64,000 nt of DNA. Origin: Verrucomicrobiota bacterium (GTDB lineage Bacteria > Verrucomicrobiota > Kiritimatiellia > UBA8416 > SLMC01). The position numbers were made by a program, and so were the translations under genes. Of the stretch, positions 40,605 through 51,369 are shown in pieces. The DNA is taken from the NCBI GenBank assembly GCA_030018915.1, contig JASEHE010000001.1:15843-79842 (forward strand), in the 5' to 3' direction. How positions within the stretch are numbered: the stretch's first letter is position 1; every line of letters begins with the position of its first letter. The notes beneath the pieces are model-generated. The model was not told the DNA's origin and made no database searches. It was given only the letters and a program-made list of their open reading frames with translations.

Positions 40605-40626
40605 TTTCGACTTTCCAGTTTCACGT
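40605..40626. repeat. GAAAC heptad-repeat element copy downstream of rlmI and tRNA-Leu
   Basis: Plus strand TTTTCGACTTTCCAGTTTCACG = minus strand CGTGAAACTGGAAAGTCGAAAA, directly 3' of the rlmI stop. Confidence 0.45.
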
Positions 40627-40629
40627 CGT

Positions 40630-41820
40630 TCAGTCCACTCGGCAGATCAAGCCCTTGAGGTAATGGCCTTCCGGAAAGCTCAGAAGCACTGGGTGATCCG
40701 GGGACTGGCCGAGAAAACGGAGAATGGAGGCCGGCCGCTTGGCGTCCAGGGCAGCGTCGGCCACGATTTTCTGGAACAGCGGCGGAGGAATCCGTCCGGA
40801 GCAGGAGAAGGTGAACAGGAAACCGCCAGGCTTGAGCAACTGGAACGCCAGCATGTTGATGTCTTTGTAGCCCCGGCTCGCCCACATGACCTGTGCTGCC
40901 GAAGCGGCGAATTTCGGCGGGTCGAGAACGACAACGTCGAATTGCCGCTTCGCTTCGCGAAACCGGCGGAGGACTTGGAAGGCGTCGTGCGCCACATTCT
41001 CCGCGGCGGCCGCTGGAAACCCATTGAGATCGGCATTCCGTTGCGCCAGCGAGAGCGCTTCCGCGGACGTGTCCACGTTGACCACGCTTTTCGCCCCGCC
41101 TTTCAGGGCCCACAAACCGAATCCGCCCGTGTAGGCAAACGCGTTGAGCACGTCAGCGCCGGCGCAAAACTCGGGCAGCATGGCCCGGTTCACCCGCTGG
41201 TCGAGATAGAATCCGGTCTTGTGGCCCTTGCGGATGTCCGCCAGAATGCGGACGTCGCCTTCTCGGATTTCGATGAGCGCCGGCGGTTCGCGTCCGGCCA
41301 GGACGCCGGTTGCTGGTTGGAGACCCTCCCTTGACCGCGCCTCGGTTTCGGATCGCTCGAAAATTCCGGCCGCTGGAAATGCCGCCTGCAGTTGCTCGAC
41401 AATCTCATTCTTGCAGCGCTCTACGCCGGCAAAGAGGAACTGGCACACGAGAAAGCCGGCATAGTGATCCACGATGAGGCCCGGCAGTCCGTCCGACTCC
41501 GCGTTGACAAGGCGGCAGGCGAACTGGGGCGCGATCAGATTCATGGCAGCCCGCGTCGCGATCGCGCGCTTCAGGCGGTCGGCGAAGAAGGCCGGCCCGA
41601 TCTCTTCGTCCAGGGCGAACGTCCAGGTCCGAACCCGGATTTGCGAGGCGGGCGAACAGGCGCCGCGCGCCAGTCGGCGTCCGTCGCTCGCCGCGATGTC
41701 CACGGTCTCCCCGGCCGCGCCCACGTCCATATCCTCGCGGCGCAACGCGCCGGAAAAGACCCAGGGGTGCCGGCGGAGCAACGACTCATCGCGGCCGGAT
41801 TTGAGCGTCAGCGTGGTCAT
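40630..41820 (-). CDS. rlmI: 23S rRNA m5C methyltransferase (RlmI-like; PUA + class I SAM MTase)
   Basis: Start at MTTLTLKSGRDESLLRRHPWVFSGAL (PUA-like N-terminus). SAM-binding VLNAFAYTGGFGLWA and VVLDPPKF motif. The longer ORF prefix is R/G/P-rich junk overlapping lpxB. Confidence 0.65.
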   Translation of the reverse strand: MTTLTLKSGRDESLLRRHPWVFSGALRREDMDVGAAGETVDIAASDGRRLARGACSPASQIRVRTWTFALDEEIGPAFFADRLKRAIATRAAMNLIAPQFACRLVNAESDGLPGLIVDHYAGFLVCQFLFAGVERCKNEIVEQLQAAFPAAGIFERSETEARSREGLQPATGVLAGREPPALIEIREGDVRILADIRKGHKTGFYLDQRVNRAMLPEFCAGADVLNAFAYTGGFGLWALKGGAKSVVNVDTSAEALSLAQRNADLNGFPAAAAENVAHDAFQVLRRFREAKRQFDVVVLDPPKFAASAAQVMWASRGYKDINMLAFQLLKPGGFLFTFSCSGRIPPPLFQKIVADAALDAKRPASILRFLGQSPDHPVLLSFPEGHYLKGLICRVD

Positions 41821-42965
41821 GACCGGGACTTCGCGTTCAGGGTGGCGAGCGCCAGGTCGGCCGCCCGCTCGGCGGCGCCGCCTGGACCGAGCGCCGCGTT
41901 GGCGCGGCATAGTCCCTCGATCATGGCGCGACGTTCCGGCGTGTCGGCGAGCAGGGATGAGAGAGCCCCGGCCAGGGCGTCCGGCGTGGCCGCAGCCTGG
42001 ATGAATTCCGGGCAGACCCGGCGGCCTGCCACGATATTGACCATGCCGATGCTGTCCACGCTCACGAGCCGCCTGGCGAGCAGGTAGTTCAGCCACGGCA
42101 TGCGGTAGACGATGATCATGGGACATTCCATGAGCGACGCCTCAATTGTGGCCGTGCCGGATGCGACCATGGCGGCATCGGCCTGGCGCAGGACCTGCCG
42201 CGTGTTGCCCGTCACCACGGCCCAGCGCAGGGGGCCGGCAGGCAGCGCCCGGATGCGCTCACGCAGGAACTCCTCGACCCGCGCGGTCGGCGCGGCCAGA
42301 ATGAAGGCGGCGCCCTCGTGTTCCCGCTCCACCCGCAGGGCAGCGGCCCACATCACCGGCAAAACGTGTCCGATCACGTGCAGGCGGCTGCCCGGCAGCA
42401 GCGCGACGCGCGGCGCGCCCGACCAGGGCAGTTCCGGTTTCGGCGCCGCCCGGGCCGCCCGGGACTCGTCCACCAGCGGGTGCCCCGCGAAATCCACGCG
42501 CAGGCCGGTGTCGCGGAAATGTTCGGCTTCAAACGGGAAGATCGCAATCAGCCGGTCCACCACGCGGGCCATCTTCGGAATGCGCGAGCGGCGCCAGGCC
42601 CAGATCTGCGGGCACACGTAATAGATGACCTTCATGCCCAGCGCGCGCGCCTCCTTGGCGAAGCGGAGGTTGAAGCCCGGATAGTCCACCAGGATCACCG
42701 CCTCCGGCCGTCTCGCGCGGGCCAGCCGGAGCAGGTCACGGAACACGCGCCGGAAGAAGAACAGACGCCGCGCCACCTCCACGAAGCCCATCACGGCCAT
42801 GTCCTTGATGTCGTAGAGCGTCTCCATGCCGGCGGCGCGCAGTTCCGGCCCGCCTACTCCGAAGAACCGCAACGAAGGATCGCGCTGCCCGAGCGCGCGA
42901 GCGAGCTGGGCGGCGTGCATGTCGCCCGAGACTTCGCCGGCAATAACCATGATCAATCGCTGAGA
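41817..42965 (-). CDS. lpxB: Lipid-A-disaccharide synthase
   Basis: Start at MSQRLIMVIAGEVSGDMHAAQLARAL, the canonical LpxB N-terminus (GE(A/V)SGD). ~382 aa GT-B fold. Confidence 0.8.
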   Translation of the reverse strand, partial: SQRLIMVIAGEVSGDMHAAQLARALGQRDPSLRFFGVGGPELRAAGMETLYDIKDMAVMGFVEVARRLFFFRRVFRDLLRLARARRPEAVILVDYPGFNLRFAKEARALGMKVIYYVCPQIWAWRRSRIPKMARVVDRLIAIFPFEAEHFRDTGLRVDFAGHPLVDESRAARAAPKPELPWSGAPRVALLPGSRLHVIGHVLPVMWAAALRVEREHEGAAFILAAPTARVEEFLRERIRALPAGPLRWAVVTGNTRQVLRQADAAMVASGTATIEASLMECPMIIVYRMPWLNYLLARRLVSVDSIGMVNIVAGRRVCPEFIQAAATPDALAGALSSLLADTPERRAMIEGLCRANAALGPGGAAERAADLALATLNAKSRS

Positions 42966-50800: not shown

Positions 50801-51166
50801 GACGTCGGCCTTTGCGCCGATCATCTCGACCTGATAGCGATCGAGGACCCCTTTTCCGTGCAGGTCCACGGACAGGTTGAGGGCAGTCTGGCCGCCAAGG
50901 GTGGACAGGAGCGCCTCGGGTCGTTCGCGGCGGATGATATCCGTGAGGATTTCCACGGTCAGCGGCTCGATGTAGGTCCGGTCCGAGAACTCCGGATCGG
51001 TCATGATCGTGGCCGGATTGCTGTTGACCAGCACGACCTCGTAGCCCTCTTCCTTGAGGGACTTGCAGGCCTGCGCGCCCGAGTAGTCGAACTCGCAGGC
51101 CTGGCCGATCACGATCGGGCCCGAGCCGATCAGCATGATCTTTTTGATGTCCGTTCGCTTCGGCAT
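47885..51166 (-). CDS. carB: Carbamoyl-phosphate synthase large subunit
   Basis: ~1093 aa. Duplicated ATP-grasp halves ([21 protein letters not shown] ... [21 protein letters not shown]) and MGS-like C-terminal domain. Confidence 0.9.
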
Positions 51167-51349
51167 TTTCGGCCCCACTGGCGCCGCGTCAGGCCCGGCC
51201 CGGATTCAAGGCGTTCAACGCGCAAACACTCAACGGTATTCCGTGGGTCCTGCGCCGATGTTTCAGGCCCGAAGTCTACCGCGCCGTCAGCAGAAGGCGC
51301 GTGACATGCCAGCCCACCACTTCGGCAGGCTTGTCGGCCGAAAGGCGTC

Positions 51350-51369
51350 CAATTTCCAGTTTCCATCTC
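51350..51369. repeat. GAAAC heptad-repeat element downstream of pyrG
   Basis: Plus strand AATTTCCAGTTTCCATCTCC = minus strand GGAGATGGAAACTGGAAATT, immediately 3' of the pyrG stop codon. Confidence 0.45.

Follow-up and report, generated by a model that had tools for sequence, protein, structure and literature searches.

The stretch examined here, 64,000 nucleotides of contig JASEHE010000001.1 from a Verrucomicrobiota bacterium (hereafter the window; G+C about 62%, with Amuc_1101/1102-type pilus genes), contains a set of short intergenic arrays of tandem 7-nt units, several of them built on the word GAAAC, which we compare below with the arms of cassettes that carry a small four-helix-bundle gene. 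Four GAAAC arrays lie on the minus strand, 6-17 nt 3' of the stop codons of genes for RlmI-like, LpxI-like, CarB and PyrG proteins, just as an initial annotation of the window had reported. CarB, PyrG and CarA score above the curated NCBIfam cut-offs; RlmI (2e-130) and LpxI (3e-35) are the best NCBIfam matches for the other two products, yet fall under the cut-offs. The annotation overlooked a weak fifth copy, the transfer RNA gene abutting the rlmI copy, and at least six post-stop period-7 arrays with other units. In the list below, an array without an inverted partner is called a solo arm.

40604-40622, minus strand: GAAAC array GAAACTGGAAAGTCGAAAA, 7 nt past the rlmI-like TGA (40630-40632); partnerless solo arm
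45676-45692, minus strand: GAAAC array GAAACTGGAAACTGGGG, 17 nt past the lpxI-like TAG (45710-45712)
47846-47871, minus strand: four-unit array GAAACTCGAAACTGGAAACTCGAAAC, 13 nt past the carB TAG (47885-47887); solo arm
51352-51363, minus strand: GAAAC array GAAACTGGAAAT, 6 nt past the pyrG TAG (51370-51372); solo arm
10716-10727, minus strand: weak fifth copy GAAACTGGAATC, 16 nt upstream of the GTG of a PilM-like gene

The pattern GAAACNNGAAAC matches the window five times against 0.14 expected, a number reached by 0 of 100 shuffles, and GAAACNNGAAA matches seven times against 0.51 expected. These matches amount to five independent loci, four of them within the non-genic DNA that makes up about 5% of the window; the fifth, at 40276, is antisense inside an aminotransferase coding sequence and looks like a chance match. 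Tandem Repeats Finder (TRF) calls period 7 at 45678-45692 and 47846-47871, and lag-7 self-matches reach 10-12 of 14 at all four GAAAC sites, the rlmI and pyrG copies being degenerate with one perfect unit each (in GAAACTGGAAAGTCGAAAA the single perfect GAAAC is accompanied by GAAAG and GAAAA).

A gap of 26 nt separates the rlmI-like stop (40630) from the 3' end of a tRNA-Leu gene that converges on it (40521-40603, plus strand), and the rlmI copy fills this gap; on the plus strand the tRNA-Leu(TAG)/rlmI spacer reads TTTTCGACTTTCCAGTTTCACG, and its T-run past the tRNA coincides in part with the array's degenerate end. The carB array occupies the 44-nt carB-carA spacer and ends 5 nt ahead of the carA ATG (47840), and the pyrG copy opens a 191-nt pyrG-carB spacer that measures 5-18 nt in relatives. 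The fifth copy lies 3' of the stop of an Amuc_1102-like gene (10762) and of a GC hairpin. In the public CarA annotation (P0001, 403 aa) the protein begins at a TTG (47873), and 11 of its residues come from the heptad array; the ATG at 47840 is just as plausible a start, because homologue N-termini are unconserved ahead of a WNW motif. Since GAAACTS is stop-free in all six frames, such arrays can inflate open reading frame (ORF) calls.

Period-7 arrays at gene ends in the window

To score arrays irrespective of their sequence, we counted lag self-matches in the 50 nt 3' of each stop, with a threshold of at least 10/14. A period-7 tandem array was found within 50 nt of the stop in 10 of the 45 window genes, while other lags between 3 and 13 gave 0-2 genes and lag 14, a harmonic, gave six; lag-7 arrays numbered two in the 50 nt before starts and none in coding DNA. 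The units vary (GAAACTS, GGTCGGT, TCGGCAA, CAGGGTT, AGGTGTC); what recurs in the window is the 7-nt period and the position, rather than the GAAAC word. A GGTCGGT TGTCGGT array follows the plus-strand gene end at 56551 and appears again past the minus-strand gene end at 56869, AGGTGTC x2 overlaps the lpxI-like TAG, and the following arrays stand alone:

24001-24027, minus strand: solo heptad array (TGCCGAT)x4, 37 nt past a stop at 24064, with a pilin-like gene downstream
24728-24753, minus strand: solo heptad array ATCGGTG GTCGGTA GTCGGTG GGCGGTT, directly 3' of a TAG at 24756
30293-30311, minus strand: solo heptad array with CAGGGTT-like units, 5 nt past the TAG (30317) of a sigma-54 activator gene
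59052-59085, minus strand: solo heptad array of about five TCGGCAA-like units, running from the TGA of a response-regulator gene (59085), with nrdR downstream

Arrays show a weak link with TAG stops, which they follow in 7 of 16 cases, against 3 of 30 for other stops (Fisher p=0.02); among genes with a spacer of at least 20 nt the counts are 7/12 and 3/15 (p=0.057). Small genes with a prepilin-type N-terminal methylation motif (MKKRGFTLVEIMIVVAIIALL...) lie at 29531-30067 (minus strand) and 23534-24795, two of them directly downstream of heptad arrays; the gene at 29531-30067 sits in an 897-nt stretch that might be taken for intergenic DNA.

As heptanucleotide tandem repeats, the arrays consist of head-to-tail 7-nt units and are intergenic and dispersed, with none inside a coding sequence. 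The initial annotation held that they are not classical hairpin terminators, and this agrees with our scans: terminator-like sites numbered 14 against 14.9 expected, and consensus terminator and promoter scans of the window gave no enrichment and nothing at the arrays. Its further suggestion of a termination-associated or Rho-utilisation-like role fared worse. Arrays placed just past stops, in a region without canonical terminators, make some other kind of termination signal conceivable, but the arrays lack a hairpin with a U-tract, and at 12-26 nt they are far below the length of a Rho-utilisation (rut) site and are neither C-rich nor G-poor (in GAAACTG, G outnumbers C). Solo arrays are stemless, and folding of the pyrG-carB spacer gave nothing significant. 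Moreover, a conserved operon contains two of the copies, for one of which the following start codon is 5 nt away, and in other genomes arrays follow stops in both orientations. The nearest CarA relatives (75-77% identity) keep the order purF-pyrG-carB-carA with spacers of 3-46 nt, and termination inside so conserved and tightly packed a cluster would be counter-productive. We therefore regard termination signals, whether rut sites or unconventional intrinsic terminators, as very improbable.

No heptad arrays were found in the loci of these nearest relatives (45 kb), so that the arrays appear to be recent additions in this lineage. Their absence from the orthologous sites also eliminated a conserved regulatory element of the pyr/car operon, and the 191-nt spacer between pyrG and carB was rejected as a structured leader, for example a pyrimidine attenuator, because the predicted fold is no better than those of shuffled sequences. 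At the gathering threshold, Rfam 15 returned two tRNAs and no rRNA in the whole window; at E<=1 it returned nothing for 45500-51450, and no match for seven of the cassette loci described below.

A reading as DNA operators was also considered. Omega/ribbon-helix-helix repressors are one class of regulator that reads heptad direct repeats. SARP-type (Streptomyces antibiotic regulatory protein) activators are another (PMC5930380). Heptad direct repeats are thus a known operator layout, and some arrays do lie upstream of carA, the pilM-like gene and nrdR. The arrays hug stops, however, even at the convergent gene/tRNA junction where there is no promoter, their units are heterogeneous, no gene for such a regulator lies nearby, and the inverted arms around PF05635 genes described in the next section would be left unexplained. 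Of all the explanations we considered, this one has the smallest chance of being right.

Inverted heptad arrays around PF05635 genes

An association between heptad arrays and a gene emerged from genome loci outside the window. Three intact four-helix-bundle genes, found there by sequence motif and confirmed as PF05635 (E ~1e-38), all proved to be framed by heptads:

L093: TAA-(GTTTCAA)4-ORF-(GAAACTC)4
L119: TAA-(GTTTTCA)4-ORF-(CTGAAAA)3-ATG of the next gene
L055: G-rich heptads either side of the ORF

For a sample independent of repeats, we took 80 metagenomic PF05635 loci chosen by protein similarity alone (a three-protein alignment), blind to repeats, of which 73 have both flanks, and defined a strong array as at least 12/14 self-matches. 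The counts among the 73 loci were as follows:

Lag 7: upstream in 41 loci, downstream in 42, on both sides in 30
Lag 8: upstream in 4 loci, downstream in 6, on both sides in 3
Lags 5, 6, 9 and 10: 0 throughout

With a threshold of at least 11/14, lag-7 arrays were present upstream in 48 and downstream in 59 of the 73. Arrays occurred at 4.20 per kb in flanking DNA, at 0.21 per kb in the remainder of these loci and not at all in the ORF, a 20-fold concentration at the flanks, and in 48 of 66 loci the two flanks had in common a perfect inverted match of 10 nt or longer, against a direct match in 12 of 66. The layout is constant, comprising a host stop, an arm, a short leader, the ORF, a second arm and the next host start. 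In this metagenomic subfamily the 5' arms are G+T-rich (AGT in 43 of 52 units) and the 3' arms A+C-rich (ACT in 37 of 53), and the predicted closing stem of one locus, L330, extends over 31 bp (z -4.4). Unit types are kept across orthologous cassettes, for example L343, L346 and L357. PF05635 loci on viral contigs (n=31) behaved similarly, with lag-7 arrays upstream in 17 and downstream in 12 and 0-2 at other lags, and G-rich heptads of the type described in Xanthomonas and Nostoc flank PF05635 genes in L334 and L055.

Several metagenomic cassettes have a TAG or TGA within the 5' arm itself (e.g. in TAGTGAC-type units). In four loci (L347, L360, L362 and L365) the four-helix-bundle gene is flanked instead by period-8 arrays (GAAACCTT / AAGGTTTC) with a GAAAC core. 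The GAAAC-sense arrays of L360 and L362 have the same orientation either side of the ORF, and by eye the flanks look direct, not inverted.

Some cassettes have arms of the very sequence found in the window. Searching with a hidden Markov model (HMM) of the family, we found six PF05635 genes in the 120 listed GAAACTS loci (890 kb). In L072, from a Verrucomicrobiota metagenome-assembled genome, and in L025, a GAAACTS 5' arm stands directly past the host stop and the 3' arm is GTTTCSA. The L072 protein belongs to TIGR02436 and matches a single PDB entry, 2GSC (Xanthomonas campestris), whose deposited model has five chains. Homologues of the protein number 1241. Every one of the 120 listed carries PF05635; those that are not identical share 67-77% identity with it, and Kiritimatiellia and Desulfonema magnum are among the sources. 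Homologue loci read (host stop) CATGAAACTGGAAACTTGAAACTGGGAAC..ATG-ORF-TAG..GTTTCCAGTTTCAAGTTTCAAG..ATG(next gene), as in the following example:

L443: ...GCATGAAACTGGAAACTTGAAACTGGGAACAGCCTTATG [ORF] TAGGATTTTCCAAGTTTCCAGTTTCAAGTTTCAAGCATCATTCC...ATG

Outside the GAAAC arms lies another pair of heptad arms (GGAATGR / YCATTCC), and the predicted fold of L443 contains nested closing stems (z -2.2). In L449 the host TGA falls inside the first arm unit, and the Desulfonema copy is flanked by long (GAAACTG)n and (GTTTCAA)n arms. The window's four GAAAC copies align with the 5' arms of L443, L449, L458, L072 and L025.

This subfamily occupies an operon with an ArsP_1 or cation-efflux permease, the four-helix-bundle gene, Thioredoxin_3, DGC and thioredoxin, the same operon place being found in metagenome contigs L443-L467 and in Desulfonema magnum (L442; CP061800, 3179915-3182274). 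The subfamily is highly conserved over many samples, and identical proteins are recorded on 8-23 contigs by the protein table and on 18-24 by look-ups, which looks like stable vertical maintenance, not recent hopping.

Two places in the window resemble reduced versions of such cassettes. The first is the sequence after lpxI, the only flagged copy said by the initial annotation to be part of a larger hairpin; here our folding agrees (minimum free energy -42.3 kcal/mol, z -2.2, against z +0.3 for the pyrG-carB spacer). Its parts are:

45619-45711, minus strand: ORF-less hairpin, directly 3' of the lpxI-like TAG
45698-45711 and 45621-45631, minus strand: outer arms of the hairpin, AGGTGTCAGGTGTC and GACACCTGACA
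45676-45692 and 45647-45658, minus strand: inner arms of the hairpin, GAAACTGGAAACTGGGG and CCTTCCAGTTTC

The loop retains an AACATG matching the leader and start codon of the four-helix-bundle cassettes. Because this copy shares with the GAAAC cassettes the flank GCATGAAACTGGAAACTGGG, the leader with its ATG and the nested outer-arm layout, and has a 14-nt loop in place of the ORF, we read the hairpin, on its sequence, as a cassette that lost its ORF.

The second lies between two convergent genes:

56545-56880, minus strand: putative decayed cassette in a convergent spacer (56552-56868), with inverted GGTCGGTTGTCGGT arrays on both sides

Here the 5' arm, AATCGGT GGTCGGT TGTCGGT (56835-56855), comes after the TAG of a SAICAR-synthetase gene (56869) and is followed on the minus strand by GGAGAGGAGG, a GTG, an apparent remnant of a four-helix-bundle ORF and the 3' arm ACCGACAACCGACC. 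On the plus strand this 3' arm reads GGTCGGTTGTCGGT (56557-56570), abutting the TAG (56551) of a plus-strand aminotransferase gene. Reading-frame fragments between the arms resemble the N- and C-termini of four-helix-bundle proteins. In a tblastn search with 81 family members, KSFKELDVCQMAFTV aligned with residues 1-22 at the N-terminus and GYVGEKDRAELTDKLETIGEMLS with residues 84-108 at the C-terminus, the two minus-strand matches being colinear. Such a colinear pair was found in 2 of 400 shuffles and in 0 of 157 other 400-nt windows of the 64 kb. In the 336-nt region both arrays form a predicted closing stem (z -3.4), and the inverted repeat runs over the TAG of both convergent host genes (GAAGTAGCAGGG / CCCTTGCTACTCC), so that the element may supply or overlap host stop codons. 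The region is probably an internally deleted four-helix-bundle cassette, in which case the lineage has hosted such elements.

Heptads in other genomes and their possible origins

In contigs representing one genome per species, the three-unit pattern GAAACTSGAAACTSGAAAC occurs in at least 120 stretches, against an estimated 17 or so by chance. The matches listed come mostly from Acidobacteriota, Planctomycetota, Verrucomicrobiota, Desulfobacterales (many in Desulfonema magnum), Chloroflexota and further groups, and their loci contain 349 arrays of period 7, in which 130 different units occur, against 24 of period 8. Of the 167 GAAACTS arrays among these matches, 27 sense and 38 antisense ones lie within 50 nt past the stop of a long ORF, and within 40 nt upstream of ATG-initiated long ORFs there are 28 sense and 10 antisense arrays. 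The single orientation relative to transcription described by the initial annotation thus holds for the five window copies and breaks down elsewhere, and a fixed orientation was discarded as a general rule. Equal frequency in coding DNA and random orientation had been named as grounds for doubting the pattern; we found strongly intergenic placement on the one hand and, on the other, an orientation that is not fixed across genomes.

GAAACTS is also not uniquely favoured among heptads, since permuted heptads are just as frequent in viral contigs:

(GAAACTS)3, period 7: 49 stretches
(GACAATS)3, permuted, period 7: 92 stretches
(GCAAATS)3, permuted, period 7: 35 stretches
Two matched period-8 patterns: 8 and 19 stretches

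These counts bear on the simplest alternative, that the arrays are plain simple-sequence repeats, unrelated to cassettes, which arise on the spot because slippage favours 7-nt units and which persist past stops, where selection is weakest. We consider such an origin a serious rival to the cassette explanation, with a modest but real chance of being correct. Arbitrary heptads being 2-10 times commoner than matched octads in viral contigs, arrays can evidently arise without a cassette, and the 130 different units among the listed genome loci fit the same process. In one relative (L123, 6701-6720) the 18-nt pyrG-carB spacer, AGAAGGAAACTCGTCGCC, holds a single GGAAACTCG, which could be a proto-unit for on-the-spot expansion, or a coincidence. 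In most bacterial genomes heptanucleotides reportedly form the most abundant class of long repeat, and among the long simple repeats of bacteria the most over-represented one (Mrazek 2007, through PMC4679880); a mean of 28 nt separates the heptamers of Xanthomonas and Nostoc from the upstream ORF (PMC4692102).

Further findings weigh against a cassette origin in the same way. A six-frame HMM search (79 members) found no intact PF05635 gene in the 64 kb at E<1, and no intact four-helix-bundle gene adjoins the other arrays of the window, whose neighbours are pilin-like genes, nrdR and response regulators. The remnant at 56.5 kb went undetected by HMM search and by hhalign, and its identification comes from the colinearity test. 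Three of the four flagged GAAAC copies are partnerless, their link to cassettes being the similarity of a short, low-complexity repeat; about 5% of the listed array-bearing loci hold a PF05635 gene (six genes in 120 loci); and 93 of the 167 listed GAAACTS arrays (56%) have no inverted partner within 700 nt, 61 having one within 150 nt.

Slippage would nevertheless leave three observations unexplained, namely the 20-fold concentration of arrays at PF05635 genes together with their inverted arrangement, the GAAACTG/T unit and flanks (CATGAAACTGG.., ..CTGGGAAC..ATG) shared between cassettes of distant phyla and the window, and the nested two-family hairpin after lpxI. We favour the cassette explanation.

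The remaining alternative is that the arrays are RNA or DNA binding sites of a trans-acting protein that tunes the mRNA stability, processing or translation of neighbouring genes. The four-helix-bundle protein is an obvious candidate for such a binder, and S1, Csp and CsrA-type proteins have been proposed for TAACTGA repeats. One member of the family is Avd, the accessory protein of diversity-generating retroelements, which binds nucleic acid and reverse transcriptase. The family homology is noted in PMC10053308, and the one PDB match of the L072 protein, the five-chain entry 2GSC, comes from a genus that is rich in heptad repeats (PMC4692102). The arrays precisely adjoin stops and starts, with the excess of sense over antisense GAAACTS arrays ahead of ATG-initiated ORFs given above; the carB-carA array stands 5 nt ahead of the carA ATG, which has no evident Shine-Dalgarno sequence; and arm units are conserved across the orthologous cassettes L343, L346 and L357. 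A single sequence-specific binder is, however, disfavoured because units differ widely between arrays of one genome, the absence of arrays from relatives with the same operons implies that those genes do not need them, and the window is without a PF05635 gene. We consider regulatory binding sites unlikely, and less so than either of the conventional signals discussed above.

Cassettes, known elements and implications

On balance, we think it probable that the window's GAAAC arrays are ORF-less derivatives and solo arms of PF05635 cassettes with heptad arms. In full form such a cassette consists of a host stop, (heptad)n, a short leader, the ORF and its stop, (reverse-complement heptad)n and the next host start, the ORF encoding a four-helix-bundle protein of about 115-125 aa (PF05635/TIGR02436, '23S rRNA intervening-sequence protein', a relative of Avd). 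In the transcript the arms are predicted to pair, leaving the ORF in the loop of a 14-31 bp stem. The window would hold degenerate forms only: one cassette with a decayed ORF, one ORF-deleted hairpin and at least eight partnerless arms, all occupying spare sequence that separates a stop from the functional signal that follows, and presumably co-transcribed with the host genes. The rlmI, carB and pyrG copies would then derive from cassettes and not have originated on the spot, persisting as decay products with little function of their own, while slippage would alter the copy number of their units. Arms built of repeats can pair in different registers, which could allow the stem to loop the insert out even after slippage and would keep the insertion harmless. 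By analogy with the 23S intervening sequences of Coxiella and Leptospira, paired arms may be cut by RNase III, and the cassette may be mobile now or have been so formerly.

Heptanucleotide repeats were reportedly first described in cyanobacteria in 1990, and we know of no agreed function or origin for them; likewise, we are aware of no role for the very common four-helix-bundle or 'S23p' proteins outside diversity-generating retroelements. The elements described here are best filed as a variant of the 23S intervening-sequence type in operon spacers, and also as intergenic heptanucleotide repeats. The closest precedent is the intervening sequence in the 23S rRNA of Coxiella, which carries a gene of the same family, has a 28-bp stem of terminal inverted repeats cut by RNase III, and bears at its 5' end two to three tandem GACAGAT heptamers, the site of RNase III cleavage, in strain-variable number (PMC4990558). 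The intervening sequences of Leptospira and Coxiella share with the present cassettes the PF05635/TIGR02436 protein, terminal inverted repeats that loop out the ORF, a sporadic distribution and decaying ORFs, and, in Coxiella, the tandem heptamers (PMC4990558). They differ in lying in helix 25 or 45 of 23S rRNA, whereas the present cassettes lie between protein-coding genes in operons, have arms made up wholly of tandem heptads, sometimes in two nested families, and in the window are represented by ORF-less or decayed forms and partnerless arms, for which RNase III excision is proposed by analogy.

Among known repeats, the heptamers of Xanthomonas (GGGAATC) and Nostoc (GGGGA(C/T)T) are about 90% intergenic, lie at a mean of 28 nt from the upstream ORF against 160 nt from the next, often fall 0-50 nt past a stop, and are conserved in position between close species while varying in length (PMC4692102). 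Like these and the cyanobacterial short tandemly repeated repetitive (STRR) sequences, the window arrays are intergenic post-stop arrays of two to many 7-nt units; unlike the Xanthomonas and Nostoc heptamers, GAAACTS does not form G-quadruplexes, and PMC4692102 ties its repeats to no gene. The TAACTGA direct repeats of marine Beggiatoaceae, Cyanobacteria and Bacteroidetes lie mostly next to starts in a 'forward' orientation; horizontal transmission was suggested for them without a mechanism, with a mobile repeat-binding protein as an alternative, and no gene or element was identified (PMC4679880). They resemble the present arrays in an AACTG core (GAAACTG vs TAACTGA), in having 2-6 copies per set, in their intergenic position and in their patchy distribution across phyla. 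They are often immediately upstream of starts, as is the carB-carA copy, whereas the window copies adjoin stops. Neither PMC4679880 nor PMC4692102 gives an origin or function for heptad repeats.

The initial annotation had also proposed a repeat family like the repetitive extragenic palindromic (REP) sequences. Of its suggestions this comes closest, in that dispersed copies are tied to a small palindromic or inverted-repeat element, but we saw neither a transposase nor a target-site duplication in the window and cassette sequences read. REP sequences, bacterial interspersed mosaic elements (BIMEs) and miniature transposable elements with inverted repeats (MITEs) are likewise short, dispersed, intergenic, often palindromic and co-transcribed, with non-autonomous copies outnumbering a protein-coding 'parent'. 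The present arms, by contrast, are tandem 7-nt repeats and no unique palindrome, a REP-associated tyrosine transposase (RAYT), DDE transposase or target-site duplication is not evident, and the cassette gene encodes a small helical protein without known catalytic activity. Avd belongs to a homologous four-helix-bundle family (PMC10053308): the L119 protein matches NF033474 at 1.8e-07 and the bAvd Pfam family weakly. Unlike Avd genes, the cassettes we examined have no adjoining reverse transcriptase, template or variable repeat, their neighbours being ordinary operon genes (permease, thioredoxins).

In the searchable literature we found no link between PF05635 and heptad arrays besides the Coxiella remark, although subscription literature could hold one, and no bacterial mention of GAAACTGGAAAC.

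Two observations on gene models in the window stand apart from the arrays. The longest rlmI-like ORF (40630-42126) overlaps the 3' part of lpxB (41817-43025) by about 300 nt, and since the RlmI profile match starts only at residue 104, its true start is probably near 41820. On the plus strand, 13344-21035 is a 2563-aa ORF with an unusually low first-position G+C (0.52), preceded by a 520-aa ORF of like composition.

For annotation, the practical consequence is that heptad arrays mislead gene callers, which here read one as a CarA N-terminus, and inflate ORFs. More broadly, the comparison joins two loose ends, a PF05635 gene that is typically framed by inverted heptad arrays and ORF-less arrays of the same sequence at gene ends. 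We would go further only tentatively: it is possible, though we think it doubtful, that much of the heptad excess of bacteria is the footprint of one widespread, selfish, intervening-sequence-like cassette family. Autonomous members would carry the gene for an Avd-like four-helix-bundle protein able to recognise or propagate its own heptad arms, with ORF-less hairpins and solo arrays, such as the window's four GAAAC copies, as the family's non-autonomous or decayed descendants, a scheme that would extend to the cyanobacterial STRR sequences, TAACTGA, the G-rich heptamers of Xanthomonas and Nostoc, and the GAAACTS arrays of Acidobacteriota, Planctomycetota, Verrucomicrobiota and Desulfobacterales. 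The joined hypothesis can be tested through binding of the protein to the repeats, RNase III processing, and presence/absence polymorphism between strains.

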